Shown: positions 9,984 through 44,037 of the stretch, piece after piece
Layout: every line of letters begins with the position of its first letter
How positions within the stretch are numbered: position 1 is the stretch's first letter
NCBI GenBank assembly: GCA_032718475.1
Contig: JAUCBJ010000321.1
Coordinates: forward strand, 30,994-94,993
Direction: 5' to 3'
Length of the DNA: 64,000 bases
Source of the DNA: Nemertoderma westbladi
Taxonomy: Eukaryota > Animalia > Xenacoelomorpha
Translations under genes and position numbers: made by a program
Notes under the pieces: generated by a model
What the model saw: only the letters and a program-made list of their open reading frames with translations
Databases searched by the model: none
Told to the model about the DNA's origin: nothing

Positions 9984-10497
9984 GTTAGTAACCCAAACTA
10001 CTCAGTGAGGGGGGCTGTAAAGGGGCGAAACACAACTGAAAAGCACTGTCACTTTAACCTGCTTCTTTCCCACAATATTAAATATGAAACAAATGCACTA
10101 CTGTAATACCTACGACTGTATAATAGACTTCATGTTTTAATTAAATTTAATGGAATATCTTATTTATTACTTTACTAATTCTCACACCGCGCGGGGGTGT
10201 ATCTTTACTTTAATTTAAAAAATTAACTAAAAAAATATCCTCGCACAAATGCAACTTTCGAACGCCAATATTCGCCCTATTTTGCAACGAAATCGAGATT
10301 GTGTTTCATATTTGGAGTCCTTGCGTGGCCAGGATTCCGAACAATGACCTACTACAATATTATTATTATAATTAGTTATATTTTAATATATCTTAAAACT
10401 TATGAATCCTTCGCTTCATTATCTGTATAAAGCGCTATTTTCTCTGTATTTTCATTATGTGGTTCGAATTCATTTTATTTTATTTATGCTGAACAGC

Positions 10498-13400
10498 AAT
10501 TTGTCACTATCTCGCTGCAGAGGTTATGATGTTAATTTGCCACTATCTCGCTACAGGTAATCATGTTAATTTGCCACTATCTTGCTACAGATAATGATGT
10601 TAATTTGCCACTATCTCGCTACAGGTAATAATGTTAATTTGCCACTATCTCGCTGTGGGTAATGATGTTAATTTGCCACTATCTCGCTACAGGTAATGAT
10701 GTTAATTTGCCACTATCTCGCTACAGGTAATCATGTTAATTTGCCACTATCTCGCTACAGGTAATCATGTTAATTTGCCACTATCTTGCTACAGGTAATG
10801 ATGTTAATTTGCCACTATCTCGCTACAGGTAATAATGTTAATTTGCCACTATCTCGCTGTGGGTAATGATGTTAATTTGCCACTATCTCGCTACAGGTAA
10901 TGATGTTAATTTGCCACTATCTCGCTACAGGTAATCATGTTAATTTGCCACTATCTTGCTACAGGTAATCATGTTAATTTGCCACTATCTCGCTACAGGT
11001 AATAATGTTAATTTGCCACTATCTCGCTGTGGGTAATGATGTTAATTTGCCACTATCTCGCTACAGGTAATGATGTTAATTTGCCACTATCTCGCTACCG
11101 GTAATCATGTTAATTTGCCACTATCTCGCTACAGGTAATCATGTTAATTTGCCACTATCTGGGCTACAGGTAATCATGTTAATTTGCCACTATCTCGCTG
11201 TAGGTTATGATGTTAATTTGCCATATCTCGCTACAGGTAATCATGTCAATTTGCCACTATCTCGCTACAGGTAATCATGTTAATTTGCCACTATCTTGCT
11301 ACAGGTAATGATGTTAATTTGACACTATCTCGCTGTGGGTAATGATGTTAATTTGCCACTATCCCGCTACAGTTTATGATGTTTATTTGCCACTATCTTG
11401 CTATTATCTTGCTACGGGTAATGATGTTAATTTTCCACTATCTTGCTACAGGTAATGATGTTAATTTGCCACTATCCCGCTACAGGTTATGATGTTAATT
11501 TGCCACTATCTCGCTGTAGGTAATGATGTTAATTTGCCACTATCTCGCTACAGGTTATGATGTTAATTTGCCACTATCTGGGATACAGGTAATGATGTTA
11601 ATTTGCCACTATCTGGGCTACAGGTAATCAGGTTAATTTGCCACTATCTCGCTACAGGTAATCAGGTTAATTTGCCACTATCTCGCTGTAGGTAATGATG
11701 TTAATTTGCCACTATCTCGCTACAGGTAATCATGTTAATTTGCCACTATCTTGCTATTATCTTGCTACGGGTAATGATGTTAATTTGCCACTATCTTGCT
11801 ACAGGTAATGATGTTAATTTGCCACTATCTCGCTACTGGTAATGATGTTAATTTGCCACCATATCTCTACAGGTTATGATGTTAATTTGCCACTATCCTG
11901 CTACAGGTTATGATGTTAATTTGCCACTATCTTGCTACGGGTAATGATGTTAATTTGCCACTATCTTGCTACAGGTAATGATGTTAATTTGCCACTATCT
12001 CGCTACAGGTAATCATGTTAATTTGCCACCATCTCTCTACAGGTTATGATATTAATTTGCCACTATCTCGCTACAAGTAATAATGATGTTAATTTGCCAC
12101 TATCTCGCTACAGGTAATGATGTTAATTTGCCATTATCTTATTACAGTTTATGATGTTAATTTGCCACTATCTCGCTACAGGTAATAATGATGTTAATTT
12201 GCCACTATCTCGCTACAGGTAATAATGATGTTAATTTGCCACTATCCCACTACAGGTTATGATGTTAATTTGCCACTATCCCGCTACAGGTTATGATGTT
12301 AATTTGTCATTATCTTGCTACAGGTTATGATGTTAATTTGCCACTATCTGGGCTACTGGTAATCATGTTAATTTGCCACTATCTCGCTGTAGGTAATGAT
12401 GTTAATTTGCCACCATCTCTCTACAGGTTATGATGTTAATTTGCCACTATCTCGCTGTAGGTAATGATGTTAATTTGCCACTATCTCGCTACAGGTTATG
12501 ATGTTAATTTGCCACTATCCCGCTACAGGTTATGATGTTAATTTGCCACTATTCCGCTACTGGTTTTGATGTTAATTTGCCACTATCCCGCTACAGGTAA
12601 TAATGATGTTAATTTGCCACTATCTCGCTGTAGGTAATGATGTTAATTTGCCACTATCTCGCTGTAGGTAATGATGTTAATTTGCCACTATCCGCTACAG
12701 GTTATGATGTTAATTTGCCACTATCCCGCTACAGGTTTTGATGTTAATTTGCCTCTATCCCGCTACAGGTAATAATGATGTTAATTTGCCACTATCTTGC
12801 TACAGGTAATGATGTTAATTTGCCACTATCTCGCTACAGGTTATGATGTTAATTTGCCTCTATCCCGCTACAGGTTTTGATGTTAATTTGCCTCTATCCC
12901 GCTACAGGTTTTGATGTTAATTTGCCACTATCCCGCTACAGGTTTTGATGTTAATTTGCCTCTATCCCGCTACAGGTAATAATGATGTTAATTTGCCACT
13001 ATCTTGCTACAGGTAATGATGTTAATTTGCCACTATCCCGCTACAGGATATGATGTTAATTTGCCACTATCCCGCTACAGGTTATGATGTTAATTTGCCA
13101 CTATCCCGCTACAGGTTATGATGTTAATTTGCCACTATCCCGCTACTGGTTTTGATGTTAATTTGCCACTATCCCGCTACAGGTAATAATGATGTTAATT
13201 TGCCACTATCTCGCTGTAGGTAATGATGTTAATTTGCCACTATCTCGCTGTAGGTAATCATGTTAATTTGTCACTATCCCGCTACAGGTTATGATGTTAA
13301 TTTGCCACTATCTCGCTGTAGGTAATGATGTTAATTTGCCACTATCTCGCTGCAGGTAATGATGTTAATTTGCCACTATCCCGCTACAGGTTATGATGTT

Positions 13401-15788
13401 AATTTGCCACTATCCCGCTACAGGTTATGATGTTAATTTGCCACTATCCCGCTACAGGTTTTGATGTTAATTTGCCACTATCCCGCTACAGGTAATAATG
13501 ATGTTAATTTGCCACTATCCCGCTACATGTTATGATGTTAATTTGCCACTATCCCGCTACAGGTTTTGATGTTAATTTGCCACTATCCCGCTACAGGTTA
13601 TAATGATGTTAATTTGCCACTATCCCGCTACAGGTTATGATGTTAATTTGCCACTATCCCGCTACAGGTTTTGATGTTAATTTGCCACTATCCCGCTACA
13701 GGTAATAATGATGTTAATTTGCCACTATCTCGCTGTAGGTAATGATGTTAATTTGCCACTATCTCGCTGTAGGTAATGATGTTAATTTGCCACTATCTCG
13801 CTGTAGGTAATGATGTTAATTTGCCACTATCTCGCTACAGGTTATGATGTTAATTTGCCACTATCCCGCTACAGGTTATGATGTTAATTTGCCACTATCC
13901 CGCTACTGGTTTTGATGTTAATTTGCCACTATCCCGCTACAGGTTATGATGTTAATTTGCCACTATCCCGCTACAGGTTTTGATGTTAATTTGCCACTAT
14001 CCCGCTACAGGTAGTAATGATGTTAATTTGCCACTATCCCGCTACAGGTAATAATGATGTTAATTTGCCACTATCTCGCTGTAGGTAATGATGTTAATTT
14101 GCCACTATCTCGCTGTAGGTACTGATGTTAATTTGCCACTATCCCGCTACAGGTTATGATGTTAATTTGCCACTATCCCGCTACAGGTTTTGATGTTAAT
14201 TTGCCACTATCCCGCTACAGGTAGTAATGATGTTAATTTGCCACTATCTTGCTACAGGTAATGATGTTAATTTGCCACTATCCCGCTACAGGTTATGATG
14301 TTAATTTGTCACTATCCCGCTACAGGTTATGATGTTAATTTGCCACTATCTCGCTGTAGGTAATGATGTTAATTTGCCACTATCTCGCTGCAGGTAATGA
14401 TGTTAATTTGCCACTATCCCGCTACAGGTTATGATGTTAATTTGCCACTATCCCGCTACAGGTAATAATGATGTTAATTTGCCACTATCCCGCTACATGT
14501 TATGATGTTAATTTGCCACTATCCCGCTACAGGTTTTGATGTTAATTTGCCACTATCCCGCTACAGGTTTTGATGTTAATTTGCCACTATCCCGCTACAG
14601 GTAATAATGATGTTAATTTGCCACTATCTTGCTACAGGTAATGATGTTAATTTGCCACTATCCCGCTACAGGTTATGATGTTAATTTGTCACTATCCCGC
14701 TACAGGTTATGATGTTAATTTGCCACTATCTCGCTGTAGGTAATGATGTTAATTTGCCACTATCTCGCTGCAGGTAATGATGTTAATTTGCCACTCTCCC
14801 GCTACAGGTTATTATGTTAATTTGCCACTATCCCGCTACAGGTTATGATGTTAATTTGCCATTATCCCGCTACAGGTTATGATGTTAATTTGCCACTATC
14901 CCGCTACAGGTTATGATGTTAATTTGCCACTATCCCGCTACAGGTAATCATGTTAATTTGCCACTATCTCGCTGCAGGTAATCATGTTAATTTGCCATTA
15001 TCTTGCTACAGGTTATGATGTTAATTTGCCACTATCTCGCTGTAGGTAATGATGTTAATTTGCCACTATCCCGCTACAGGTAATCATGTTAATTTGCCAT
15101 CATTTCTCTACAGGTTATGATGTTAATTTGACACTATCTCGCTGTAGGTAATGATGTTAATTTGCCACTATCTCGCTACAGGTTATGATGTTAATTTGCC
15201 ACTATCTTGCTACAGGTGATCATGTTAATTTGCCACTATCTCGCTACAGGTAATGATGTTAATTTGCCACTATCTCGCTGCAGGTAATCATGTTAATTTG
15301 CCATTATCTTGCTACAGGTTATGATGTTAATTTGCCACTATCTCGCTGTAGGTAATGATGTTAATTTGCCACTATCCCGCTACAGGTAATCATGTTAATT
15401 TGCCATCATTTCTCTACAGGTTATGATGTTAATTTGCCACTATCTCGCTGAAGGTAATGATGTTAATTTGACACTATCCCGCTACAGGTTATGATGTTAA
15501 TTTGCCACTATCTCGCTGTAGGTAATGATGTTAATTTGCCACTATCCCGCTACAGGTAATCATGTTAATTTGCCATCATTTCTCTACAGGTTATGATGTT
15601 AATTTGCCACTATCTCGTTGTAGGTAATGATGTTAATTTGACACTATCCCGCTACAGGTTATCATGTTAATTTGCCACTATCTCTCTACAGGTTATGATG
15701 TTAATTTGCCACTATCTCTCTACAGGTTATGATGTTAATTTGCCACTATCTTGCTACAGGTTATGATGTTAATTTGCCATTGTCTCGC
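10498..15788 (+). repeat. 34-bp minisatellite (~155 copies) built from the ZMYND12 intron 2 / exon 3 junction
   Basis: Unit gt(t/a)at(g/c)atgttaatttgccactatc(t/c)cgctacag. The last partial copy is the start of exon 3 (gttatgatgttaatttgccattgtctcgc). Confidence 0.97.
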
Positions 15789-15987
15789 GATGCTACGGAA
15801 CATCCAGAGAATCGACGTAGAATCCTTGGCTTTCGCTCGAGAGGCTCGTGGATACGCTGAGACGATAACCGGTAACCAAGGGAGACGATTGGTTACAGAT
15901 GTTATTGAGTTTGCCAGCATGTTGGAGCCCTACAAGCCGCCAACGCCAATCGCTGGGGATGAGACAGATGTTATAGGCGCCGCCTAG
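15760..15987 (+). CDS. ZMYND12: ZMYND12 exon 3 (terminal)
   Basis: CAG|GTTATG at 15759/15760, phase 0, matches the exon 2 donor phase. Encodes VMMLICHCLAMLRNIQ...SLAFAREARGYAE..., which fits the expected C-terminal helices. TAG at 15985-15987 is followed by AT-rich UTR-like sequence. Confidence 0.78.
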   Translation, partial: VMMLICHCLAMLRNIQRIDVESLAFAREARGYAETITGNQGRRLVTDVIEFASMLEPYKPPTPIAGDETDVIGAA

Positions 15988-16260: not shown

Positions 16261-18651
16261 ATATTAGGTGTATCGTATACCTCCGATATAAAAAAACATT
16301 GGCGCTATAATATTAGGTGTATCGTATATATACCTCCGATATAAAAAAACATTGGCGCTATAATATTAGGTGTATCGTATAACTCCAATATAAAAAAACA
16401 TTGGCGCTATAATATTAGGTGTATCGTATACCTCCGATATAAAAAAACATTGGCGCTATAATATTAGGTGTATCGTATACCTCCGATATAAAAAAACATT
16501 GGCGCTATAATATTAGGTGTATCGTATACCTCCGATATAAAAAAACATTGGCGCTATAATATTAGGTGTATCGTATACCTCCGATATAAAAAAACATTGG
16601 CGCTATAATATTAGGTGTATCGTATACCTCCGATATAAAAAAAACATTGGCGCTATAATATTAGGTGTATCGTATACCTCCGATATAAAAAAAACATTGG
16701 CGCTATAATATTAGGTGTATCGTATACCTCCGATATAAAAAAAACATTGGCGCTATAATATTAGGTGTATCGTATACCTCCGATATAAAAAAAAACATTG
16801 GCGCTATAATATTAGGTGTATCGTATACCTCCGATATAAAAAAACATTGGCGCTATAATATTAGGTGTATCGTATACCTCCGATATAAAAAAAACATTGG
16901 CGCTATAATATTAGGTGTATCGTATACCTCCGATATAAAAAAAAACATTGGCGCTATAATATTAGGTGTATCGTATACCTCCGATATAAAAAAACATTGG
17001 CGCTATAATATTAGGTGTATCGTATACCTCCGATATAAAAAAAACATTGGCGCTATAATATTAGGTGTATCGTATACCTCCGATATAAAAAAACATTGGC
17101 GCTATAATATTAGGTGTATCGTATAACTCCGATATAAAAAAAACATTGGCGCTTTAAAATTAGGTGTATCGTATACCTCCCATATAAAAAAACCATTGGC
17201 GCTATAATATTGGGTGTATCGTATACCTCCGATATAAAAAAAAACATTGGCGCTATAATATTAGGTGTATCGTATACCTCCGATATAAAAAAACATTGGC
17301 GCTATAATATTAGGTGTATCGTATACCTCCGATATAAAAAAAACATTGGCGCTATAATATTAGGTGTATCGTATACCTCCGATATAAAAAAACATTGGCG
17401 CTATAATATTAGGTGTATCGTATACCTCCGATATAAAAAAAACATTGGCGCTATAATATTAGGTGTATCATATACCTCCGATATAAAAAAAACATTGGCG
17501 CTATAATATTAGGTGTATCGTATACCTCCGATATAAAAAAAACATTGGCGCTATAATATTAGGTGTATCGTATAACTCCAATATAAAAAAAACATTGGCG
17601 CTATAATATTAGGTGTATCGTATACCTCCGATATAAAAAAACATTGGCGCTATAATATTAGGTGTATCGTATACCTCCGATATAAAAAAACATTGGCGCT
17701 ATAATATTAGGTGTATCGTATAACTCCGATATAAAAAAAACATTGGCGCTATAATATTAGGTGTATCGTATAACTCCGATATAAAAAAAACATTGGCGCT
17801 ATAATATTAGGTGTATCGTATACCTCTGATATAAAAAAACATTGGCGCTATAATATTAGGTGTATCGTATACCTCCGATATAAAAAAACATTGGCGCTAT
17901 AATATTAGGTGTATCGTATACCTCCGATATAAAAAAAACATTGGCGCTATAATATTAGGTGTATCGTATACCTCCGATATAAAAAAACATTGGCGCTATA
18001 ATATTAGGTGTATCGTATACCTCCGATATAAAAAAACATTGGCGCTATAATATTAGGTGTATCGTATACCTCCGATATAAAAAAAACATTGGCGCTATAA
18101 TATTAGGTGTATCATATACCTCCGATATAAAAAAACATTGGCGCTATAATATTAGGTGTATCATATACCTCCGATATAAAAAAACATTGGTGCTATAATA
18201 TTAGGTGTATCGTATACCTCCGATATAAAAAAAAACATTGGCGCTATAATATTAGGTGTATCGTATACCTCCGATATAAAAAAACATTGGTGCTATAATA
18301 TTAGGTGTATCGTATACCTCCGATATAAAAAAACATTGGCGCTATAATATTAGGTGTATCGTATACCTCCGATATAAAAAAACATTGGCGCTATAATATT
18401 AGGTGTATCGTATACCTCCGATATAAAAAAAACATTGGCGCTATAATATTAGGTGTATCATATACCTCCGATATAAAAAAACATTGGCGCTATAATATTA
18501 GGTGTATCATATACCTCCGATATAAAAAAACATTGGTGCTATAATATTAGGTGTATCGTATACCTCCGATATAAAAAAAAACATTGGCGCTATAATATTA
18601 GGTGTATCGTATACCTCCGATATAAAAAAAACATTGGCGCTATAATATTAG
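16261..18651. repeat. 49-51-bp minisatellite (~48 copies)
   Basis: Unit atattaggtgtatcgtatacctccgatat(a)7-9cattggcgctata. Length varies mostly in the A-run. Confidence 0.97.
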
Positions 18652-18654
18652 TAA

Positions 18655-19991: not shown

Positions 19992-20145
19992 GGCATAGAG
20001 ATTTGGGGGACCCTTAAACAGAAAAATTTACAGAAACATTGCTGATTTTTTATACTCCATTTTCTGGTAAAAAGAAACATTACCTTTTAAATCAACGGCA
20101 TTTTATATTAGTTACCATATTGAAATCCATGGAATATTAAGTTAA

Positions 20146-23100
20146 CATTGCTGCCACTTACACCAAGGTATTTAGAGATACATTGCCGCCACTTACACTA
20201 AGGAAGGTATTTAGAGATACATTGCTGCCACTTACACCAAGGTATTTAGAGATACATTGCTGTCACTTACACTAAGGTATTTAGAGATACATTGCTGTCA
20301 CTTACACTAAGGTATTTAGAGATACATTGCTGCCACTTACACAAAGGTATTTAGAGATACATTGCTGCCACTTACACCAAGGTATTTAGAGATACATTGC
20401 TGTCACTTACACTAAGGTATTTAGAGATACATTGCTGCCACTTGCACAAAGGTATTTAGAGATACATTGCCGCCACTTACACTAAGGTATTTAGAGATAC
20501 ATTGCTGCCACTTACACTAAGGTATTTAGAGATACATTGCTGTCACTTACACTAAGGTATTTACAGATATATTGCTGCCACTTACACTAAGGTATTTAGA
20601 GATACATTGCTGCCACTTACACAAAGGTATTTAGAGATACATTGCTGCCACTTACACTAAGGTATTTAGAGATACATTGCTGCCACTTACACTAAGGTAT
20701 TTACAGATATATTGCTGCCACTTGCACAAAGGTATTTAGAGATACATTGCCGCCACTTACACAAAGGTATTTAGAGATACATTGCTGTCACTTACACTAA
20801 GGTATTTAGAGATACATTGCTGTCACTTACACTAAGGTATTTAGATATACATTGCTGCCACTTGCACAAAGGTATTTAGAGATACATTGCCGCCACTTAC
20901 ACTAAGGTATTTAGAGATACATTGCTGCCACTTACACTAAGGTATTTAGAGATACATTGCTGCCACTTGCACAAAGGTATTTAGAGATACATTGCCGCCA
21001 CTTACACTAAGGTATTTAGAGATACATTGCTGCCACTTACACTAAGGTATTTAGAGATACATTGCTGTCACTTACACTAAGGTATTTACAGATATATTGC
21101 TGCCACTTACACTAAGGTATTTAGAGATACATTGCTGCCACTTACACAAAGGTATTTAGAGATACATTGCTGCCACTTACACTAAGGTATTTAGAGATAC
21201 ATTGCTGCCACTTACACTAAGGTATTTAGAGATACATTGCTGTCACTTACACTAAGGTATTTACAGATATATTGCTGCCACTTACACTAAGGTATTTAGA
21301 GATACATTGCTGCCACTTACACAAAGGTATTTAGAGATACATTGCTGCCACTTACACTAAGGTATTTAGAGATACATTGCTGTCACTTACACTAAGGTAT
21401 TTACAGATATATTGCTGCCACTTACACTAAGGTATTTAGAGATACATTGCTGCCACTTACACAAAGGTATTTAGAGATACATTGCTGCCACTTACACCAA
21501 GGTATTTAGAGATACATTGCTGTCACTTACACTAAGGTATTTAGAGATACATTGCTGTCACTTACACTAAGGTATTTAGAGATACATTGCTGCCACTTAC
21601 ACAAAGGTATTTAGAGATACATTGCTGCCACTTACACCAAGGTATTTAGAGATACATTGCTGTCACTTACACTAAGGTATTTAGAGATACATTGCTGCCA
21701 CTTGCACAAAGGTATTTAGAGATACATTGCCGCCACTTACACTAAGGTATTTAGAGATACATTGCTGCCACTTACACTAAGGTATTTAGAGATACATTGC
21801 TGTCACTTACACTAAGGTATTTACAGATATATTGCTGCCACTTACACTAAGGTATTTAGAGATACATTGCTGCCACTTACACAAAGGTATTTAGAGATAC
21901 ATTGCTGCCACTTACACTAAGGTATTTAGAGATACATTGCTGCCACTTACACTAAGGTATTTAGAGATACATTGCTGTCACTTACACTAAGGTATTTAGA
22001 GATACATTGCTGCCACTTACACAAAGGTATTTAGAGATACATTGCTGCCACTTACACCAAGGTATTTAGAGATACATTGCTGTCACTTACACTAAGGTAT
22101 TTAGAGATACATTGCTGCCACTTGCACAAAGGTATTTAGAGATACATTGCCGCCACTTACACTAAGGTATTTAGAGATACATTGCTGCCACTTACACTAA
22201 GGTATTTAGAGATACATTGCTGTCACTTACACTAAGGTATTTACAGATATATTGCTGCCACTTACACTAAGGTATTTAGAGATACATTGCTGCCACTTAC
22301 ACAAAGGTATTTAGAGATACATTGCTGCCACTTACACTAAGGTATTTAGAGATACATTGCTGCCACTTACACTAAGGTATTTACAGATATATTGCTGCCA
22401 CTTGCACAAAGGTATTTAGAGATACATTGCCGCCACTTACACAAAGGTATTTAGAGATACATTGCTGTCACTTACACTAAGGTATTTAGAGATACATTGC
22501 TGTCACTTACACTAAGGTATTTAGAGATACATTGCTGCCACTTGCACAAAGGTATTTAGAGATACATTGCCGCCACTTACACTAAGGTATTTAGAGATAC
22601 ATTGCTGCCACTTACACAAAGGTATTTAGAGATACATTGCCGCCACTTACACTAAGGTATTTAGAGATACATTGCTGCCACTTACACTAAGGTATTTAGA
22701 GATACATTGCTGTCACTTACACTAAGGTATTTACAGATATATTGCTGCCACTTACACTAAGGTATTTAGAGATACATTGCTGCCACTTACACAAAGGTAT
22801 TTAGAGATACATTGCTGCCACTTACACTAAGGTATTTAGAGATACATTGCTGCCACTTACACTAAGGTATTTAGAGATACATTGCTGTCACTTACACTAA
22901 GGTATTTACAGATATATTGCTGCCACTTACACTAAGGTATTTAGAGATACATTGCTGCCACTTACACAAAGGTATTTAGAGATACATTGCTGCCACTTAC
23001 ACTAAGGTATTTAGAGATACATTGCTGTCACTTACACTAAGGTATTTACAGATATATTGCTGCCACTTACACTAAGGTATTTAGAGATACATTGCTGCCA

Positions 23101-24243: not shown

Positions 24244-24943
24244 ATATATTACATACAATATGGACTTTAGCGATACAGCAATAAAAATGGATTGATCTGG
24301 TTGGATGATAAACTTCATATTAATCAATTATACAATAAAGATGTTGAAACTCGGTAATAACTGTAGAAAGTATAATGTAACAAAGATCCTTGGAGATAAA
24401 ATCCTCATAACCTGACGACCTAATATTAATTAATTTCGAAAAACTTCGAAACACTCTACATAAAATTATATTAAATACAACAAATTAATAACATTCGAAG
24501 TAATGGTTGGATATAATACAACTAATTAAGTAACTATAAACAAAAAAAAATATAAATACAAATAAGTAATGAACATTAATCATATCAATACATTTTATAG
24601 GTTAATATATAACAGATTTATAGAGAAAATATTAAATTAAAAGGAAAACTCGATTCGGAATATAAATAATTATTACAGGGACACCATGGTACCATGGAAA
24701 CCCTGATGGACACACCAGCAACGGGATAAATGATATTCTAATTAAAATGTATCTAAACAATGATTGTTGAACAATAATTAATTAAAGAAACTAACCTTAG
24801 TCAAATATATGAATTACTTGGAAAAAAATAACACAAAACTATAAATAATTGTTGACGATTAAGAATCTGTTGAATTTATTGGGGTAAATTAGAAAACATT
24901 TAAACTGAAAATATTTAAACAATTGGAACATTTTATAATAAAT

Positions 24944-32203: not shown

Positions 32204-32277
32204 TGGTCCATGTGAGGATTGAACCCACGACCTATTGGAGATGTGAATTCAAAGCAACCACTACACCAAGGTGGAAC
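32204..32277 (-). pseudogene. tRNA-like sequence (Val-CAC-like pseudogene or SINE head)
   Basis: The minus strand has A box tggtgtagtgg, loop ttcacat and B box ggttcaatcc, and ends atggacca. Acceptor and anticodon stems are imperfect. Confidence 0.5.
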
Positions 32278-32342
32278 AACGTTTGAATTTGTTCGTTAAC
32301 GTTCGAATTTGTAAGACTCTGATTTAAGACCTGAGGCACTCC

Positions 32343-32612
32343 CCACAACCACAGCCACAGCCACAGCCACAACCACAGCCACAGCCACAGCCACAACCAC
32401 AGCCACAACCACAGCCACAGCCACAGCCACAGCCACAGCCACAGCCACAACCACAGCCACAACCACAGCCACAACCACAGTCACAACCACAGCCACAGCC
32501 ACAACCACAGCCACAGCCACAACCACAGCCACAACCACAGCCACAGCCACAACCACAACCACAACCACAGCCACAGCCACAACCACAGCCACAACCACAG
32601 CCACAGCCACAG
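32343..32612. repeat. (CCACAR)n hexanucleotide microsatellite, ~45 copies
   Basis: Interspersed ccacag and ccacaa units, continuous with the inner end of the right TIR. Confidence 0.95.
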
Positions 32613-33022
32613 CTGTAGGTTTGAATAATTTAAACTCTATCGCAGGTCCCATTCACGCGTTGACATAGACATTCCACGGCTGTAGGCAGGACGTAGGATT
32701 AAGTCGAACCTGTGAGCGACCTTGGGGTCCGATCGGATGGAGGCATTGTCACTTATTTGCTTTGATTCTGGTTGGATCGGTGCAGATGATTTTGACGCAA
32801 TTATTGGCGTCTTCCCCTTACAGAAACCGCGGCGAATAAATTATGTTGTAAATAACTATTTATTTTACAAAAATAAGTAACTATTTTTTTGTCCGACTTG
32901 TTTATCCACATTTTCGAGGAATAGTAGAATGTGGAATAATAATGCACATTCTACAAAGCTGATTGGATAAATAAATATTATATTATCCGCATTTTTGGAA
33001 GATTGAATGGATAATAACTTTT

Positions 33023-36000
33023 ACCTGTAGGAACTGCTGTCTCTGGAACTCTCCTATAAACTCACCTGTAGGAACTGCTGTCTCTGGAACTCCCCTATAA
33101 ACTCACCTGTAGGAACTGCTGTCTCTGGAACTCCCCTAAACTCACCTGTAGGAACTGCTGTCTCTGGAACTCCCCTAAACTCACCTGTAGGAACTGCTCT
33201 CTCTGGAACTCTCCTAAACTCACCTGTAGGAACTGCTGTCTCTGGAACTCTCCTATAAACTCACCTGTAGGAACTGCTGTCTCTGGAACTCCCCTAAACT
33301 CACCTGTAGGAACTGCTGTCTCTGGAACTCTCCTATAAACTCACCTGTAGGAACTGCTGTCTCTGGAACTCCCCTAAACTCACCTGTAGGAACTGCTGTC
33401 TCTGGAACTCTCCTATAAACTCACCTGTAGGAACTGCTGTCTCTGGAACTCTCCTATAAACTCACCTGTAGGAACTGCTGTCTCTGGAACTCTCCTATAA
33501 ACTCACCTGTAGGAACTGCTGTCTCTGGAACTCTCCTATAAACTCACCTGTAGGAACTGCTGTCTCTGGAACTCCCCTAAACTCACCTGTAGGAACTGCT
33601 GTCTCTGGAACTCTCCTATAAACTCACCTGTAGGAACTGCTGTCTCTGGAACTCTCCTATAAACTCACCTGTAGGAACTGCTGTCTCTGGAACTCTCCTA
33701 TAAACTCACCTGTAGGAACTGCTGTCTCTGGAACTCTCCTATAAACTCACCTGTAGGAACTGCTGTCTCTGGAACTCTCCTATAAACTCACCTGTAGGAA
33801 CTGCTGTCTCTGGAGCTCTTCTAAACTCACCTGTAGGAACTGCTGTCTCTGGAGCTCTCCTATAAACTCACCTGTAGGAACTGCTGTCTCTGGAACTCTC
33901 CTATAAACTCACCTGTAGGAACTGCTGTCTCTGGAACTCTCCTATAAACTCACCTGTAGGAACTGCTGTCTCTGGAACTCTCCTAAACTCACCTGTAGGA
34001 ACTGCTGTCTCTGGAACTCTCCTATAAACTCACCTGTAGGAACTGCTGTCTCTGGAACTCTCCTATAAACTCACCTGTAGGAACTGCTGTCTCTGGAACT
34101 CTCCTATAAACTCACCTGTAGGAACTGCTGTCTCTGGAACTCTTCTAAACTCACCTGTAGGAACTGCTGTCTCTGGAACTCTCCTATAAACTCACCTGTA
34201 GGAACTGCTGTCTCTGGAACTCTCCTATAAACTCACCTGTAGGAACTGCTGTCTCTGGAGCTCTTCTAAACTCACCTGTAGGAACTGCTGTCTCTGGAGC
34301 TCTCCTATAAACTCACCTGTAGGAACTGCTGTCTCTGGAGCTCTTCTAAACTCACCTGTAGGAACTGCTGTCTCTGGAGCTCTCCTATAAACTCACCTGT
34401 AGGAACTGCTAGTCTCTGCAACTCTCCTAAACTCACCTGTAGGAACTGCTGTCTCTGGAGCTCTCCTATAAACTCACCTGTAGGAACTGCTGTCTCTGGA
34501 ACTCTCCTATAAACTCACCTGTAGGAACTGCTGTCTCTGGAACTCTCCTATAAACTCACCTGTAGGAACTGCTGTCTCTGGAACTCTCCTAAACTCGCCT
34601 GTAGGAACTGCTGTCTCTGGAACTCTCCTATAAACTCACCTGTAGGAACTGCTGTCTCTGGAACTCTCCTATAAACTCACCTGTAGGAACTGCTGTCTCT
34701 GGAACTCTCCTATAAACTCACCTGTAGGAACTGCTGTCTCTGGAACTCTTCTAAACTCACCTGTAGGAACTGCTGTCTCTGGAACTCTCCTATAAACTCA
34801 CCTGTAGGAACTGCTGTCTCTGGAACTCTCCTATAAACTCACCTGTAGGAACTGCTGTCTCTGGAGCTCTTCTAAACTCACCTGTAGGAACTGCTGTCTC
34901 TGGAGCTCTCCTATAAACTCACCTGTAGGAACTGCTAGTCTCTGCAACTCTCCTAAACTCACCTGTAGGAACTGCTGTCTCTGGAGCTCTCCTATAAACT
35001 CACCTGTAGGAACTGCTGTCTCTGGAACTCTCCTATAAACTCACCTGTAGGAACTGCTGTCTCTGGAACTCTCCTATAAACTCACCTGTAGGAACTGCTG
35101 TCTCTGGAACTCTCCTATAAACTCACCTGTAGGAACTGCTGTCTCTGGAACTCTCCTATAAACTCACCTGTAGGAACTGCTGTCTCTGGAACTCTCCTAT
35201 AAACTCACCTGTAGGAACTGCTGTCTCTGGAACTCTTCTAAACTCACCTGTAGGAACTGCTGTCTCTGGAACTCTCCTATAAACTCACCTGTAGGAACTG
35301 CTGTCTCTGGAACTCTCCTATAAACTCACCTGTAGGAACTGCTGTCTCTGGAACTCCCCTAAACTCACCTGTAGGAACTGCTCTCTCTGGAACTCTCCTA
35401 AACTCACCTGTAGGAACTGCTGTCTCTGGAACTCTCCTATAAACTCACCTGTAGGAACTGCTGTCTCTGGAACTCCCCTAAACTCACCTGTAGGAACTGC
35501 TGTCTCTGGAACTCTCCTATAAACTCACCTGTAGGAACTGCTGTCTCTGGAACTCTCCTAAACTCACCTGTAGGAACTGCTGTCTCTGGAACTCTCCTAT
35601 AAACTCACCTGTAGGAACTGCTGTCTCTGGAACTCTCCTATAAACTCACCTGTAGGAACTGCTGTCTCTGGAACTCTCCTATAAACTCACCTGTAGGAAC
35701 TGCTGTCTCTGGAACTCTTCTAAACTCACCTGTAGGAACTGCTGTCTCTGGAACTCTCCTATAAACTCACCTGTAGGAACTGCTGTCTCTGGAACTCTCC
35801 TATAAACTCACCTGTAGGAACTGCTGTCTCTGGAGCTCTTCTAAACTCACCTGTAGGAACTGCTGTCTCTGGAGCTCTCCTATAAACTCACCTGTAGGAA
35901 CTGCTGTCTCTGGAGCTCTTCTAAACTCACCTGTAGGAACTGCTGTCTCTGGAGCTCTCCTATAAACTCACCTGTAGGAACTGCTAGTCTCTGCAACTCT

Positions 36001-39000
36001 CCTAAACTCACCTGTAGGAACTGCTGTCTCTGGAGCTCTCCTATAAACTCACCTGTAGGAACTGCTGTCTCTGGAACTCTCCTATAAACTCACCTGTAGG
36101 AACTGCTGTCTCTGGAACTCTCCTATAAACTCACCTGTAGGAACTGCTGTCTCTGGAACTCTCCTAAACTCACCTGTAGGAACTGCTGTCTCTGGAACTC
36201 TCCTATAAACTCACCTGTAGGAACTGCTGTCTCTGGAACTCTCCTATAAACTCACCTGTAGGAACTGCTGTCTCTGGAACTCTCCTATAAACTCACCTGT
36301 AGGAACTGCTGTCTCTGGAACTCTTCTAAACTCACCTGTAGGAACTGCTGTCTCTGGAACTCTCCTATAAACTCACCTGTAGGAACTGCTGTCTCTGGAA
36401 CTCTCCTATAAACTCACCTGTAGGAACTGCTGTCTCTGGAGCTCTTCTAAACTCACCTGTAGGAACTGCTGTCTCTGGAGCTCTCCTATAAACTCACCTG
36501 TAGGAACTGCTGTCTCTGGAGCTCTTCTAAACTCACCTGTAGGAACTGCTGTCTCTGGAGCTCTCCTATAAACTCACCTGTAGGAACTGCTGTCTCTGCA
36601 ACTCTCCTAAACTCACCTGTAGGAACTGCTGTCTCTGGAGCTCTCCTATAAACTCACCTGTAGGAACTGCTGTCTCTGGAACTCTCCTATAATCTCACCT
36701 GTAGGAACTGCTGTCTCTGGAACTCTCCTATAAACTCACCTGTAGGAACTGCTGTCTCTGGAACTCTCCTATAAACTCACCTGTAGGAACTGCTGTCTCT
36801 GGAACTCTTCTAAACTCACCTGTAGGAACTGCTGTCTCTGGAACTCTCCTATAAACTCTACTGTAGGAACTGCTCTCTCTGGAACTCTCCTAAACTCACC
36901 TGTAGGAACTGCTGTATCTGGAACTCTCCTATAAACTCACCTGTAGGAACTGCTGTCTCTGCAACTCTCCTAAACTCACCTGTAGGAACTGCTGTCTCTG
37001 GAGCTCTCCTATAAACTCACCTGTAGGAACTGCTGTCTCTGGAACTCTCCTATAATCTCACCTGTAGGAACTGCTGTCTCTGGAACTCTCCTATAAACTC
37101 ACCTGTAGGAACTGCTGTCTCTGGAACTCTCCTATAAACTCACCTGTAGGAACTGCTGTCTCTGGAACTCTTCTAAACTCACCTGTAGGAACTGCTGTCT
37201 CTGGAACTCTCCTATAAACTCACCTGTAGGAACTGCTGTCTCTGCAACTCTCCTAAACTCACCTGTAGGAACTGCTGTCTCTGGAGCTCTCCTATAAACT
37301 CACCTGTAGGAACTGCTGTCTCTGGAACTCTCCTATAATCTCACCTGTAGGAACTGCTGTCTCTGGAACTCTCCTATAAACTCACCTGTAGGAACTGCTG
37401 TCTCTGGAACTCTCCTATAAACTCACCTGTAGGAACTGCTGTCTCTGGAACTCTTCTAAACTCACCTGTAGGAACTGCTGTCTCTGGAACTCTCCTATAA
37501 ACTCTACTGTAGGAACTGCTGTCTCTGCAACTCTCCTAAACTCACCTGTAGGAACTGCTGTCTCTGGAGCTCTCCTATAAACTCACCTGTAGGAACTGCT
37601 GTCTCTGGAACTCTCCTATAATCTCACCTGTAGGAACTGCTGTCTCTGGAACTCTCCTATAAACTCACCTGTAGGAACTGCTGTCTCTGGAACTCTCCTA
37701 TAAACTCACCTGTAGGAACTGCTGTCTCTGGAACTCTTCTAAACTCACCTGTAGGAACTGCTGTCTCTGGAACTCTCTTAAACTCACCTGTAGGAACTGA
37801 TGTCTCTGGAACTCTCCTATAAACTCTACTGTAGGAACTGCTCTCTCTGGAACTCTCCTAAACTCACCTGTAGGAACTGCTGTATCTGGAACTCTCCTAT
37901 AAACTCTACTGTAGGAACTGCTCTCTCTGGAACTCTCCTAAACTCACCTGTAGGAACTGCTGTCTCTGGAACTCTCATATAAACTCACCTGTAGGAACTG
38001 CTGTCTCTGGAACTCTCCTATAATCTCACCTGTAGGAACTGCTGTCTCTGGAACTCTCATATAAACTCACCTGTAGGAACTGCTGTCTCTTGAACTCTCC
38101 TATAAACTCACCTGTAGGAACTGCTGTCTCTGGAACTCTCCTATAAACTCTACTGTAGGAACTGCTGTCTCTGGAACTCTCCTAAACTCACCTGTAGGAA
38201 CTGCTGTCTCTGGAACTCTCATATAAACTCACCTGTAGGAACTGCTGTCTCTTGAACTCTCCTATAAACTCACCTGTAGGAACTGCTGTCTCTGGAACTC
38301 TCCTATAAACTCACCTGTAGGAACTGCTGTCTCTGGAACTCTCCTATAATCTCACCTGTAGGAACTGCTGTCTCTGGAGCTCTCCTATAAACTCACCTGT
38401 AGGAACTGCTGTCTCTGGAACTCTCCTATAATCTCACCTGTAGGAACTGCTGTCTCTGGAACTCTCCTATAAACTCACCTGTAGGAACTGCTGTCTCTGG
38501 AACTCTCCTATAAACTCACCTGTAGGAACTGCTGTCTCTGGAACTCTTCTAAACTCACCTGTAGGAACTGCTGTCTCTGGAACTCTCTTAAACTCACCTG
38601 TAGGAACTGATGTCTCTGGAACTCTCCTATAAACTCTACTGTAGGAACTGCTCTCTCTGGAACTCTCCTAAACTCACCTGTAGGAACTGCTGTATCTGGA
38701 ACTCTCCTATAAACTCTACTGTAGGAACTGCTCTCTCTGGAACTCTCCTAAACTCACCTGTAGGAACTGCTGTCTCTGGAACTCTCATATAAACTCACCT
38801 GTAGGAACTGCTGTCTCTGGAACTCTCCTATAATCTCACCTGTAGGAACTGCTGTCTCTGGAACTCTCATATAAACTCACCTGTAGGAACTGCTGTCTCT
38901 TGAACTCTCCTATAAACTCACCTGTAGGAACTGCTGTCTCTGGAACTCTCCTATAAACTCTACTGTAGGAACTGCTGTCTCTGGAACTCTCCTAAACTCA

Positions 39001-42000
39001 CCTGTAGGAACTGCTGTCTCTGGAACTCTCATATAAACTCACCTGTAGGAACTGCTGTCTCTTGAACTCTCCTATAAACTCACCTGTAGGAACTGCTGTC
39101 TCTGGAACTCTCCTATAAACTCACCTGTAGGAACTGCTGTCTCTGGAACTCTCCTATAAACTCTACTGTAGGAACTGCTGTCTCTGGAACTCTCCTAAAC
39201 TCACCTGTAGGAACTGCTGTCTCTGGAACTCTCCTATAAACTCACCTGTTGGAACTGCTGTCTCTTGAACTCTCATATAAACTCACCTGTAGGAACTGTT
39301 GTCTCTGGAACTCTCCTATAAACTCACCTGTAGGAACTGCTGTCTCTGGAACTCTCCTATAAACTCACCTGTAGGAACTGCTGTCTCTGGAACTCTCCTA
39401 TAATCTCACCTGTAGGAACTGCTGTCTCTGGAACTCTCCTATAAACTCACCTGTAGGAACTGCTGTCTCTGGAACTCTCCTATAAACTCACCTGTAGGAA
39501 CTGCTGTCTCTGGAACTCTTCTAAACTCACCTGTAGGAACTGCTGTCTCTGGAACTCTCTTAAACTCACCTGTAGGAACTGATGTCTCTGGAACTCTCCT
39601 ATAAACTCTACTGTAGGAACTGCTCTCTCTGGAACTCTCCTAAACTCACCTGTAGGAACTGCTGTATCTGGAACTCTCCTATAAACTCTACTGTAGGAAC
39701 TGCTCTCTCTGGAACTCTCCTAAACTCACCTGTAGGAACTGCTGTCTCTGGAACTCTCATATAAACTCACCTGTAGGAACTGCTGTCTCTGGAACTCTCC
39801 TATAATCTCACCTGTAGGAACTGCTGTCTCTGGAACTCTCATATAAACTCACCTGTAGGAACTGCTGTCTCTTGAACTCTCCTATAAACTCACCTGTAGG
39901 AACTGCTGTCTCTGGAACTCTCCTATAAACTCTACTGTAGGAACTGCTGTCTCTGGAACTCTCCTAAACTCACCTGTAGGAACTGCTGTCTCTGGAACTC
40001 TCATATAAACTCACCTGTAGGAACTGCTGTCTCTTGAACTCTCCTATAAACTCACCTGTAGGAACTGCTGTCTCTGGAACTCTCCTATAAACTCACCTGT
40101 AGGAACTGCTGTCTCTGGAACTCTCCTATAATCTCACCTGTAGGAACTGCTGTCTCTGGAGCTCTCCTATAAACTCACCTGTAGGAACTGCTGTCTCTGG
40201 AACTCTCCTATAATCTCACCTGTAGGAACTGCTGTCTCTGGAACTCTCCTATAAACTCACCTGTAGGAACTGCTGTCTCTGGAACTCTCCTATAAACTCA
40301 CCTGTAGGAACTGCTGTCTCTGGAACTCTTCTAAACTCACCTGTAGGAACTGCTGTCTCTGGAACTCTCTTAAACTCACCTGTAGGAACTGATGTCTCTG
40401 GAACTCTCCTATAAACTCTACTGTAGGAACTGCTCTCTCTGGAACTCTCCTAAACTCACCTGTAGGAACTGCTGTATCTGGAACTCTCCTATAAACTCTA
40501 CTGTAGGAACTGCTCTCTCTGGAACTCTCCTAAACTCACCTGTAGGAACTGCTGTCTCTGGAACTCTCATATAAACTCACCTGTAGGAACTGCTGTCTCT
40601 GGAACTCTCCTATAATCTCACCTGTAGGAACTGCTGTCTCTGGAACTCTCATATAAACTCACCTGTAGGAACTGCTGTCTCTTGAACTCTCCTATAAACT
40701 CACCTGTAGGAACTGCTGTCTCTGGAACTCTCCTATAAACTCTACTGTAGGAACTGCTGTCTCTGGAACTCTCCTAAACTCACCTGTAGGAACTGCTGTC
40801 TCTGGAACTCTCATATAAACTCACCTGTAGGAACTGCTGTCTCTTGAACTCTCCTATAAACTCACCTGTAGGAACCGCTGTCTCTGGAACTCTCCTATAA
40901 ACTCACCTGTTGGAACTGCTGTCTCTGGAACTCTCCTATAAACTCTACTGTAGGAACTGCTGTCTCTGGAACTCTCCTAAACTCACCTGTAGGAACTGCT
41001 GTCTCTGGAACTCTCCTATAAACTCACCTGTTGGAACTGCTGTCTCTTGAACTCTCATATAAACTCACCTGTAGGAACTGTTGTCTCTGGAACTCTCCTA
41101 TAAACTCACCTGTAGGAACTGCTGTCTCTGGAACTCTCCTATAAACTCACCTGTAGGAACTGGTCTCTGGAACTCTCCTATAATCTCACCTGTAGGAACT
41201 GCTGTCTCTGGAACTCTCATATAAACTCACCTGTAGGAACTGCTGTCTCTTGAACTCTCCTATAAACTCACCTGTAGGAACTGCTGTCTCTGGAACTCTC
41301 CTATAAACTCTACTGTAGGAACTGCTGTCTCTGGAACTCTCCTAAACTCACCTGTAGGAACTGCTGTCTCTGGAACTCTCCTATAAACTCACCTGTAGGA
41401 ACTGCTGTCTCTGCAACTCTCCTAAACTCACCTGTAGGAACTGCTGTCTCTGGAACTCTCCTATAAACTCACCTGTAGGAACTGCTGTCTCTGGAACTCT
41501 CCTAAACTCACCTGTAGGAACTGCTGTCTCTGGAACTCTCCTATAAACTCACCTGTAGGAACTGCTGTATCTGGAACTCTCCTAAACTCACCTGTAGGAA
41601 CTGCTGTCTCTGGAGCTCTCCTATAAACTCACCTGTTGGAACTGCTGTCTCTGGAACTCTCCAATAAACTCACCTGTAGGAACTGCTGTCTCTGGAACTC
41701 TCCAATAAACTCACCTGTAGGAACTGCTGTCTCTGGAACTCTCCTAAACTCACCTGTAGGAACTGCTGTCTCTGGAACTCTCCTATAAACTCACCTGTAG
41801 GAACTGCTGTCTCTGGAACTCTCCTATAAACTCACATATAGGAACTGCTGTCTCTGGAACTCTCCTAAACTCACCTGTAAGAACTGCTGTCTCTGGAACT
41901 CTCCTATAAACTCACCTGTAGGAACTGCTGTCTCTGGAACTCTCCAATAAACTCACCTGTAGGAACTGCTGTCTCTGGAACTCTCCTATAAACTCACCTG

Positions 42001-44037
42001 TAGGAACTGCTGTCTCTGGAACTCTCCTATAAACTCACCTGTAGGAACTGCTGTCTCTGGAACTCTTCTAAACTCACCTGTAGGAACTGCTGTCTCTGGA
42101 ACTCTCTTAAACTCACCTGTAGGAACTGATGTCTCTGGAACTCTCCTATAAACTCTACTGTAGGAACTGCTCTCTCTGGAACTCTCCTAAACTCACCTGT
42201 AGGAACTGCTGTCTCTGGAACTCTCCTATAAACTCTACTGTAGGAACTGCTCTCTCTGGAACTCTCCTAAACTCACCTGTAGGAACTGCTGTCTCTGGAA
42301 CTCTCATATAAACTCACCTGTAGGAACTGCTGTCTCTGGAACTCTCCTATAATCTCACCTGTAGGAACTGCTGTCTCTGGAACTCTCATATAAACTCACC
42401 TGTAGGAACTGCTGTCTCTTGAACTCTCCTATAAACTCACCTGTAGGAACTGCTGTCTCTTGAACTCTCCTATAAACTCACCTGTAGGAACTGCTGTCTC
42501 TGGAACTCTCCTATAAACTCACCTGTAGGAACTGCTGTCTCTGGAACTCTCCTATAAACTCTACTGTAGGAACTGCTGTCTCTGGAACTCTCCTAAACTC
42601 ACCTGTAGGAACTGCTGTCTCTGGAACTCTCCTATAAACTCACCTGTTGGAACTGCTGTCTCTTGAACTCTCATATAAACTCACCTGTAGGAACTGTTGT
42701 CTCTGGAACTCTCCTATAAACTCACCTGTAGGAACTGCTGTCTCTGGAACTCTCCTATAAACTCACCTGTAGGAACTGCTGTCTCTGGAACTCTCCTATA
42801 ATCTCACCTGTAGGAACTGCTGTCTCTGGAACTCTCATATAAACTCACCTGGAGGAACTGCTGTCTCTTGAACTCTCCTATAAACTCACCTGTAGGAACT
42901 GCTGTCTCTGGAACTCTCCTATAAACTCTACTGTAGGAACTGCTGTCTCTGGAACTCTCCTAAACTCACCTGTAGGAACTGCCGTCTCTGGAACTCTCCT
43001 ATAAACTCACCTGTAGGAACTGCTGTCTCTGCAACTCTCCTAAACTCACCTGTAGGAACTGCTGTCTCTGGAACTCTCCTATAAACTCACCTGTAGGAAC
43101 TGCTGTCTCTGGAACTCTCCTAAACTCACCTGTAGGAACTGCTGTCTCTGGAACTCTCCTATAAACTCACCTGTAGGAACTGCTGTATCTGGAACTCTCC
43201 TAAACTCACCTGTAGGAACTGCTGTCTCTGGAGCTCTCCTATAAACTCACCTGTAGGAACTGCTGTCTCTGGAACTCTCCAATAAACTCACCTGTAGGAA
43301 CTGCTGTCTCTGGAACTCTCCAATAAACTCACCTGTAGGAACTGCTGTCTCTGGAACTCTCCTAAACTCACCTGTAGGAACTGCTGTCTCTGGAACTCTC
43401 CTATAAACTCACCTGTAGGAACTGCTGTCTCTGGAACTCTCCTATAAACTCACATATAGGAACTGCTGTCTCTGGAACTCTCCTAAACTCACCTGTAGGA
43501 ACTGCTGTCTCTGGAACTCTCCTATAAACTCTCCTGTAGGAACTGCTGTCTCTGGAACTCTCCAATAAACTCACCTGTAGGAACTGCTGTCTCTGGAACT
43601 CTCCTAAACTCACCTGTAGGAACTGCTGTCTCTGGAACTCTCCTTTAAACTCACCTGTAGGAACTGCTGTCTCTGGAACTCTCCTATAAACTCACTGTAG
43701 GAACTGCTGTCTCTGGAACTCTCCTAAACTCACCTGTAGGAACTGCTGTCTCTGGAACTCTCCTAAACTCACCTGTAGGAACTGCTGTCTCTGGAACTCT
43801 CCTAAACTCACCTGTAGGAACTGCTGTCTCTGGAACTCTCCTAAACTCACCTGTAGGAACTGCTGTCTCTGGAACTCTCCTAAACTCACCTGTAGGAACT
43901 GCTGTCTCTGGAACTCTCCTTAAACTCACCTGTAGGAACTGCTGTCTCTGGAACTCTCCTAAACTCACCTGTAGGAACTGCTGTCTCTGGAACTCTCCTA
44001 AACTCACCTGTAGGAACTGCTGTCTCTGGAACTCTCT
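33023..44037 (-). repeat. 39/41-bp minisatellite (~270 copies, ~11 kb) built from the RAD21 exon 1 end plus 5' splice site
   Basis: Minus-strand unit gagagttccagagacagcagttcctaCAG|GTGAGTtt(at)ag. The first copy is coding sequence (EFQRQQFLQ). Confidence 0.97.

Follow-up and report, generated by a model that had tools for sequence, protein, structure and literature searches.

The window (the whole 64,000-nt stretch of DNA analysed) contains two neighbouring genes, ZMYND12 and RAD21, each of which carries a long minisatellite that overlaps an exon boundary. The features of this region are as follows:

8961..9722, + strand: ZMYND12 coding exon 1 (ATG at 8961; spliced contig of run X4)
9723..9812, + strand: ZMYND12 intron 1, 90 nt, without an array (X4 joint skips 90 nt, GT..AG)
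9813..9983, + strand: ZMYND12 exon 2 (X4 contig; orthologue alignment)
9984..10497, + strand: non-repeat 5' part of ZMYND12 intron 2, with the donor (sequence)
10498..15788, + strand: ZMYND12 acceptor array, 34-nt unit, about 153 copies (TRF; high unit depth in X1 and X2)
15760..15987, + strand: ZMYND12 coding exon 3, terminal; acceptor used at 15759 (X4 contig)
16261..18651, no strand assigned: 49-nt minisatellite, 48 copies, no known exon boundary (TRF)
20145..24250, no strand assigned: 35-nt minisatellite, 117 copies, no known exon boundary (TRF)
24946..28826, no strand assigned: 41-nt minisatellite, 92 copies, no known exon boundary (TRF)
29558..30250, - strand: last coding exon of RAD21, exon 2 (a loose end of X4 falls at 30219+)
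30251..33022, - strand: non-repeat 3' portion of the RAD21 intron, which includes its acceptor (sequence)
33023..44036, - strand: RAD21 donor array, 39/41-nt unit, 273 copies (TRF; length variants in X1, X2 and X3)
44008..45303, - strand: RAD21 coding exon 1; donor used at 44007 (ATG at 45303; spliced contig; orthologues)

The ZMYND12 reading frame ends with a stop codon at 15985-15987 and encodes a product of 386 aa, in which MYND and TPR domains were found and whose best matches show 69-70% identity; its exon junctions are colinear with those of the aligned orthologues. Within intron 2 (9984-15759), TRF reported a period of 34 and 153.5 copies on 10498-15788. Each unit consists of the last 5 nt of the intron and the first 29 nt of the exon, the last copy being the start of exon 3, and the array ends 29 nt into this exon (15760-15788). 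YAG|GT is found at 131 of the 152 unit junctions, and these 131 are each preceded by a branch-like TTAAT and a pyrimidine stretch in the sequence. The array makes up 91% of intron 2 (the remaining 514 nt are non-repeat); its first copy is degenerate and its last one diverges from the consensus. A T-rich acceptor-like site at 10496, before the array, is likely to be the ZMYND12 acceptor that existed before the duplication.

RAD21 encodes a product of 662 aa (stop at 29560-29558), whose matches show 41-71% local identity, none of them close, and has a single intron (44007-30251). For 33023-44036, TRF gave a period of 41 and 272.8 copies. Here the unit comprises 29 nt of exon end and 10 or 12 nt of intron start; exon 1 ends in the first copy, and the array therefore starts 29 nt inside this exon (44036-44008). 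CAG|GT is kept in 247 of the 273 copies, and the same perfect-consensus 9-mer, CAG|GTGAGT, is present in 230 of these 247 donors; the AG|GT of the units is the ordinary MAG|GT donor consensus. Dispersed along the array are 21 donor-less variant units. The GT..AG spacer within the units is just 10-12 nt, the copies have no clear pyrimidine tract in their sequence, and a different donor follows the last copy. This array accounts for 80% of the intron, with the other 2,772 nt being non-repeat.

The splice sites in use were read from run X4, which is labelled 'DNA?' and was taken as RNA solely from its spliced contigs; it represents one RNA-like run of one sample, in contigs from which rare forms are dropped, and the array state of the individual was not seen as DNA. 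X4 skips three GT..AG introns exactly, has no long contig inside those introns and contains no array contig. Its RAD21 contig (812 nt, depth 142) joins a single exon-end copy to exon 2, while its ZMYND12 contig (1,652 nt, depth 328) joins exon 2 to the last array copy, passing from 9983 to the exon-3 start with two diagnostic letters present and then on into 15789+. In X4, RAD21 is spliced from its first donor and ZMYND12 to its last acceptor, both of them exon-adjacent copies. RAD21 donors 2 and 3 would yield in-frame proteins longer by 13 and 26 aa, free of premature stops, and with the penultimate ZMYND12 acceptors the stop would fall in the last exon; the products of these near alternatives should thus not be hidden by the decay of faulty mRNA, and their contigs are absent among the X4 pieces listed (four of five records for RAD21, two of two for ZMYND12). 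A first-come rule fails for the ZMYND12 acceptor, because 135 AG acceptors are transcribed ahead of the used one.

Two further candidate selectors were rejected. RNA structure does not single out the used sites: the last ZMYND12 acceptor has an accessibility of 0.51 vs 0.49 ± 0.07, with 67 of 132 others as open, and the first RAD21 donor 0.54 vs 0.50 ± 0.09, with 11 of 49 as open (50 of the 247 donors folded). Donor strength is ruled out for RAD21 by the identical 9-mer in 230 copies.

These findings bear on a sequence-only reading made earlier from the same DNA. Two arrays at exon boundaries of neighbouring genes, as it proposed, are borne out by TRF, the spliced contigs and the orthologue alignment, and its estimate of about 29-30 nt of exon plus a splice signal per unit corresponds to 29 nt in both arrays. 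The X4 contigs agree with its exon boundaries and show the exon-adjacent copy in use at both arrays, in keeping with its view that amplified junctions need a rule for choosing one site. The YAG|GT junctions that it described hold for the counts given above and not for the remaining units; the introns that it called filled retain their non-repeat parts, and its 'hundreds' of copies are really about 153 and 273. The genes are neighbours as stated, but they are separated by 13.6 kb and by three arrays that it overlooked. That these three of the five arrays have no known exon boundary tempers its suggestion of a lineage-wide process. With these three extra arrays, which bring the total for the five to 26,683 of 33,539 nt, the region appears to amplify local sequence generally. 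No convincing parent copies of the array units were found elsewhere in the window, the best matches being 15-19 nt.

Taking these results together, we consider it likely that both arrays are junction ('mirage') minisatellites, amplified like their neighbours and tolerated via exon-adjacent splicing, an explanation that builds on the observed anatomy and copy numbers and on the first-donor and last-acceptor use in one run. A short duplication across the splice site of a pre-existing intron would have seeded each array, and block duplications would then have expanded it; slippage and unequal exchange, as for the three intergenic arrays, likely amplified the 34-41 nt junction stretches. Marker units reappear at spaced positions (29+49 pairs at units 47, 90, 110, 134 and 154; donor-less units at 21 positions), which agrees with the prediction of block duplication, and the boundary copies depart from the array consensus in both arrays. 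Arrays lying fully within coding exons would be purged while junction-spanning ones survive, and the latter are likely tolerated as splicing at the exon-adjacent copy removes all extra copies with the intron. Recognition from the exon side may let this copy win: on the donor side (RAD21) by an upstream-first choice like that of human F7, and on the acceptor side, in the terminal exon of ZMYND12, probably through exon enhancers or by a coupling with the poly(A) site. Both arrays are probably neutral passengers.

The two arrays are of a kind for which lancelet and human genes have provided earlier examples, so that the earlier suggestion of a system not yet described gives way to the published amphioxus 'mirages' (PMC3087553, PMC3902484) and human junction VNTRs (PMC1557585), as far as the available portions of these reports go. 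In both arrays the unit spans a real exon-intron boundary and the terminal copy is part of the exon; the splice signal occurs in many, not all, units; normal splicing with the exon-adjacent copy is undisturbed (in contigs of one RNA-like run); and there is concerted evolution within the array from which the boundary copies are excluded. According to the accessible text of the amphioxus papers, the mirage genes Adh3, the globins BflGb6 and BflGb9, troponin C and PGBD5 likewise have tandem repeats that straddle the exon-intron boundary, whether at the 5' or at the 3' site, with AG/GT kept by many but not all units and with regular splicing undisturbed, and their boundary copies escape homogenisation and differ from the consensus (PMC3087553). 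On the other hand, BflGb6 has 3-6 copies compared with 153 and 273 in ZMYND12 and RAD21, and these two genes, unlike the amphioxus cases, are intron-poor, with the array taking up 80-91% of the intron. The host is also not a cephalochordate; a quick tree placed the query beside acoels with weak support (SH-aLRT 66).

The closest human counterparts are donor-spanning VNTRs, for which the parts of PMC1557585 at hand list F7 intron 7 (37 bp, 5-9 copies), IFI6/6-16 (25 pseudo-sites), CBS intron 13 (15-20), LMNB2 (10-15) and PDGF intron 4 (16-18). As in RAD21, the first unit lies across the exon-intron boundary and is followed by identical donors, and in F7, LMNB2 and PDGF the most upstream donor alone is used; in IFI6 and CBS splicing also takes two additional donors, so a clean choice is not universal (PMC1557585). 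RAD21 has about ten times more copies than these VNTRs and perfect-consensus decoys at 230 of 247 donors, and the ZMYND12 array is one of acceptors, whereas the F7 study, in its available portion, deals with donors alone (PMC1557585). Human segmental-duplication genes also have internal tandem repeats, with minisatellite units of roughly 30 bp, that sit at exon-intron boundaries and lengthen introns, but these average about 4 copies, occur in paralogous families and in some cases change the protein (PMC2812944, available text).

The standout feature of the two arrays is therefore their scale, about ten times the copy number found in the published accounts at hand. Outside subscription journals, the literature search found no junction array above about 26 copies and no mechanism study of an acceptor array. 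With the present arrays, a known oddity is found in a further animal group, and ZMYND12 provides a clean acceptor-side case, in which 135 earlier AGs and the acceptor-like site before the array are bypassed for the last one. Its intron 2 is a ready substrate for tests of acceptor choice at a terminal exon, and arrays of 150-270 copies would put exon-side splice-site choice, that of acceptors in particular, to perhaps the severest natural test known.

One result that counts against random seeding followed by clean splicing is that two of the five arrays lie at splice sites, which exceeds random placement. Array seeding in this lineage could instead be aimed at splice junctions or at AGGT sequence, with splicing-linked R-loops or a motif preference at the DNA level as possible routes; this view is compatible with the exon-adjacent splicing rule and differs in how an array starts. 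The probability that at least two of five random seeds fall at the six splice sites is 3-4e-4 for the whole window and 4-6e-3 for the gene span only, values that are post hoc, for a window picked for the feature, and do not constitute a genome-wide test. AGGT is present in all five array units (expectation 0.20-0.26 per unit), including all three intergenic ones (about 0.014 jointly, by shuffling), and both junction units contain exactly 29 nt of exon. However, 23% of ordinary 42-mers in the window carry AGGT on one strand, and the exon share differs among the published cases described in the available part of PMC1557585 (4 nt in F7). Given the two arrays at splice sites and the AGGT in all five units, there may be a seeding bias; that it explains the arrays in place of random seeding and filtering seems unlikely to us. 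We are just as doubtful of a wider version, in which the genome would preferentially seed minisatellites at junctions or AG|GT with a fixed exon footprint of about 29 nt, splicing would mark the amplified DNA and the intergenic arrays would lie at junctions of unannotated transcripts. If a genome-wide bias towards junctions or AGGT were true, it would offer a mechanism for mirages, whose origin is called unclear in the accessible text of PMC3087553, and link splicing to the birth of repeats.

Improbable, in our judgement, is stepwise (recursive) splicing, which the sequence-only reading had raised and in which internal ZMYND12 acceptors would be used, their GT regenerating a donor, until the last acceptor is reached. 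In the ZMYND12 units, an acceptor that directly abuts a donor exists as sequence: like ratchet sites, the 131 YAG|GT junctions lie behind the branch-like motif and pyrimidine stretch, and in-array junctions match 5-7 of the 9 donor-consensus positions. The known ratchet sites are single and conserved; they lie in very long introns, and intermediates prove their use. The ZMYND12 junctions, in contrast, are repeated and not better conserved, and X4 contigs contain no intermediate, weak evidence since contigs drop rare forms. Moreover, donors regenerated after joining to exon 2 fit just 3-5 of 9 positions, compared with 6 for the native donor. AG|GT is conserved no better than the rest of the unit, with variant counts of 10/2/3/1 of 129 and 0/2/21/23 of 256 modal-length units against medians of 1 and 0 at other positions (the units not being independent), and purifying selection on AG|GT was not detected in the units of either array. 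The final steps would need introns of 34 nt, and RAD21 ones of 10-12 nt, both under the usual animal limits. The related proposal that each unit can be spliced out is not supported, given this short RAD21 spacer, the spread of the 21 donor-less units and the same lack of any preferential conservation of AG|GT.

Very unlikely is a sloppy choice concealed by surveillance, with many internal sites used and the products degraded. Such degradation would fit the finding that all 135 upstream ZMYND12 AG acceptors lead to a stop within 141 nt and that 244 of the 247 RAD21 donors would not yield a full-length protein, but the nearest alternatives would escape junction-based decay and are nevertheless unseen in the listed X4 contigs.

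We give very little credence to the idea that the assembler inflated short repeats. No read or contig spans either array, and the DNA sample X1, which shows 0 differences over 1,610 nt, may from its sequence be the source sample of the assembly. Array units nevertheless occur at high depth both in X1 and in the independent DNA sample X2 (15 differences over about 1,600 nt), where summed unit depth, which is not a copy number, is 1,299 vs 21 at RAD21 and 1,641 vs 23 at ZMYND12. Both the 39 and 41 length variants of RAD21 are present in X1, X2 and X3, and both arrays show structured variant gradients along their length.

There is a negligible chance that these introns arose as in the tandem-duplication (Rogers) model of intron gain, also part of the earlier reading, in which a duplicated exonic stretch with AGGT becomes an intron. 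The spliced RAD21 junction is CAG|GT and ZMYND12 exon 3 starts with GT, but the units contain intron-type sequence, and both introns have their second splice site beyond the repeat, 514 nt or 2,772 nt past the array in non-repeat sequence. This leaves the model unsupported, as the exonic segment must provide both splice sites in the account given in the available part of PMC4974935.

The non-repeat part of the RAD21 intron (30251..33022) also contains an element with inverted ends of 67 nt, as well as a (CCACAG)45 tract.

ZMYND12 and RAD21, the two convergent genes carrying splice-junction arrays, were both identified with backing from Pfam domains. The ZMYND12 pieces aligned end to end with orthologues, crossing both exon junctions, and showed the closest identity (69–70%) to a hemichordate and molluscs; a quick tree placed the query beside acoels with weak support. 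The gene models and the minisatellites between them are as follows.

Coding exons and intergenic arrays (window positions)
8961–9722, 9813–9983, 15760–15987, plus strand: the three coding exons of ZMYND12
45303–44008, 30250–29558, minus strand: the two coding exons of RAD21
16261–18651: intergenic minisatellite, 49-nt unit
20145–24250: intergenic minisatellite, 35-nt unit
24946–28826: intergenic minisatellite, 41-nt unit

Between 10.5 and 44 kb of the window, Tandem Repeats Finder detected five long arrays, with periods of 34, 49, 35, 41 and 41 nt and 153, 48, 117, 92 and 273 copies, respectively, which together occupy 26,683 of 33,539 nt. The first lies within ZMYND12 and the last within RAD21. 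A sequence-only reading had proposed that each of these two starts exactly at an exon boundary; in both, the terminal copy spans the boundary, and the unit holds 29 nt of exon plus the splice signal, namely the acceptor in ZMYND12 and the donor in RAD21. The same reading described introns filled with copies; the arrays (about 153 and 273 copies) account for 91% of the ZMYND12 and 80% of the RAD21 host intron, while the remainder of both is non-repeat and bears the opposite splice site. In ZMYND12, the unit is made up of five intron-end bases followed by 29 nt from the start of exon 3, and 129 of 152 units are 34 nt long. The RAD21 unit comprises 29 nt from the end of exon 1 and 10 or 12 intron bases, its 273 copies being spaced mostly at 41 nt (182 intervals) or 39 nt (75). 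The YAG|GT unit junctions claimed for both arrays were found in most units but not in all: 131/152 in ZMYND12 (AG retained in 136/152) and, as CAG|GT, 247/273 in RAD21, with the perfect consensus CAG|GTGAGT in 230 of these 247. The 5'-most ZMYND12 copy is degenerate and preceded by a T-rich tract with a terminal CAG at 10496, which was probably the acceptor before duplication. The final RAD21 copy is succeeded by a donor-like sequence of another kind. Uncommon marker units reappear at intervals, and this recurrence points to expansion of the arrays through block duplication.

The RAD21 exon was present in four of eight listed sequencing runs. In X1 (possibly the source sample) and X2 (which, with X3, represents one other sample), exons and introns were covered alike. 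Summed unit depth, which is not equal to copy number, reached 5,868 (X1) and 1,299 (X2) for RAD21 versus 16–21 on the exon, and 1,634 (X1) and 1,641 (X2) for ZMYND12 versus 23 on the exon. Both RAD21 length variants (39 and 41) were found in X1, X2 and X3. These data demonstrate the presence of both arrays; their length is the assembly value only, no sequence from X1–X4 spanning either one.

The run X4, labelled 'DNA?', omits three GT..AG introns exactly and was therefore taken as RNA. Its 812-nt RAD21 contig (depth 142) contains a single exon-end copy running into exon 2, so the donor used is the first one. For ZMYND12, two positions separate the exon copy from the array consensus and make that copy identifiable in RNA. 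The 1,652-nt X4 contig (depth 328) omits intron 1, fuses 9983 to the start of exon 3 with both diagnostic letters present, and continues into sequence unique to the region after the last copy; the acceptor used is the last one. Array units were absent from the listed X4 pieces (4/5 RAD21 records, 2/2 for ZMYND12), this splicing evidence being that of one run, whose contigs lose rare forms and in whose individual the arrays were not seen. Hypothetical use of RAD21 donors 2 and 3 would keep the reading frame, with products of 675 and 688 aa, and with the ZMYND12 acceptors just before the last the stop stays in the terminal exon; the lack of internal-site products therefore exceeds what decay of faulty mRNA would account for.

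Thus, one site is indeed picked among near-identical decoys, and it is the exon-adjacent copy at both ends. Sequence strength was ruled out as the selector because the copies are identical, and predicted RNA structure did not set the used sites apart from the others. We infer that the exon side determines which copy is used. Terminal exon definition is well established, and for the terminal ZMYND12 exon, with a poly(A) signal nearby at 16006, exon enhancers or poly(A)-site coupling would be the favoured cue. The use of the first RAD21 donor agrees with the upstream-first donor scanning demonstrated in human F7 (PMC1557585). Under an exon-side rule, duplication across a junction would be silent and free to expand, in a region that amplifies local sequence in any case.

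The sequence-only reading knew of no description of such arrays as a system. However, two reports describe amphioxus repeats across exon–intron boundaries, at 5' and 3' sites, under the name 'mirages' (PMC3087553; PMC3902484), which leave splicing undisturbed and whose origin is described as unclear (PMC3087553). Donor-spanning minisatellites in human F7, IFI6, CBS, LMNB2 and PDGF have 5–26 copies (PMC1557585), as against 153 and 273 here. The ZMYND12 and RAD21 arrays are real and belong to this known class; what gives the finding its worth is their scale, together with a clean outcome on the acceptor side.

A lineage-wide process that amplifies splice junctions had also been suggested. On the most far-reaching view, the genome would seed amplification preferentially at splice junctions or AG|GT, with an exon footprint of ~29 nt and splicing marking the sites. 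We consider this unlikely, and the counts from this window are post hoc hints: two of five arrays lie at splice sites (six sites, P 3e-4 to 6e-3); AGGT occurs in all five units, on one strand in each of the three intergenic ones (expectation 0.20–0.26 each); and the exon content is 29 nt in both junction units (15760–15788 and 44008–44036), an equality that may be coincidence. Recursive (ratchet) splicing of the ZMYND12 units, whose junctions resemble ratchet points, is very improbable, since the donors re-created by joining to exon 2 agree with the consensus at 3–5/9 positions versus 6/9 for the native donor, the AG|GT positions show no higher conservation than others within the unit in both arrays, and RAD21 units that lack a donor, 21 in all, have spread. 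Intron gain under the Rogers model, which requires an exonic segment giving both splice sites (PMC4974935), is not supported, as this does not hold here.

Several further observations were made. AATAAA at 16006 lies 3' of the ZMYND12 coding end; the X4 ZMYND12 contig, if colinear, ends beyond it at ~16306, within the opening unit of the 49-mer array, and the ZMYND12 3' UTR may therefore extend that far. A 1,029-nt X1 DNA contig begins in ZMYND12-type units (10532–10600) and then extends 960 nt further, whereas the window has ~470 nt of non-repeat sequence past the array; it may represent a different allele or a second locus, and no register at the array end reproduced its reported four differences. 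At 43958, the loose end of an X3 contig fuses a RAD21-type unit to 108 nt foreign to the window (as checked for the first 20 nt). Candidate readings are an insertion within the array, an array that ends differently in this sample, and a separate locus.

No known exon lies at the three intergenic arrays. The 49-mer array is preceded by an acceptor-like T-rich tract ending in TAG|GT, and a MITE-like element of ~380 nt (18654–19031; 31-nt inverted ends, 94%; TAA on either side), presumably PIF/Harbinger, sits exactly at its right end. The 35-mer unit contains GTAAGT on the minus strand. An AT-rich stretch occurs in two copies (19231–19331 and 20045–20144, 80% similar), the second adjoining the 35-mer array, whose unit has 15–19 nt matches nearby; this array may thus stem from a dispersed element.

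Gene structure appears intron-poor (2352–3068, 8961–15987, 29558–45303). The frame at 2352–3068 runs without interruption and encodes an L51/S25/CI-B8 domain (mitochondrial ribosomal protein). The first RAD21 coding exon is 1,296 nt long, whereas the gene in vertebrates comprises about a dozen exons; exon 2 here contains an in-frame coding tandem repeat (29859–29916; 18 nt, ~3 copies). Three retroelement frames were also found.

Retroelement frames
48296–51877, minus strand: Pao-type peptidase (Pfam PF05380)
54719–57076, plus strand: reverse transcriptase (Pfam PF00078), A-run near 57350
61206–63455, plus strand: 749 aa, no Pfam match, adjoining a direct repeat

The RAD21 intron itself holds an element at 31385–32667 with 67-nt inverted ends (97%), one of which continues into a (CCACAG)45 tract.
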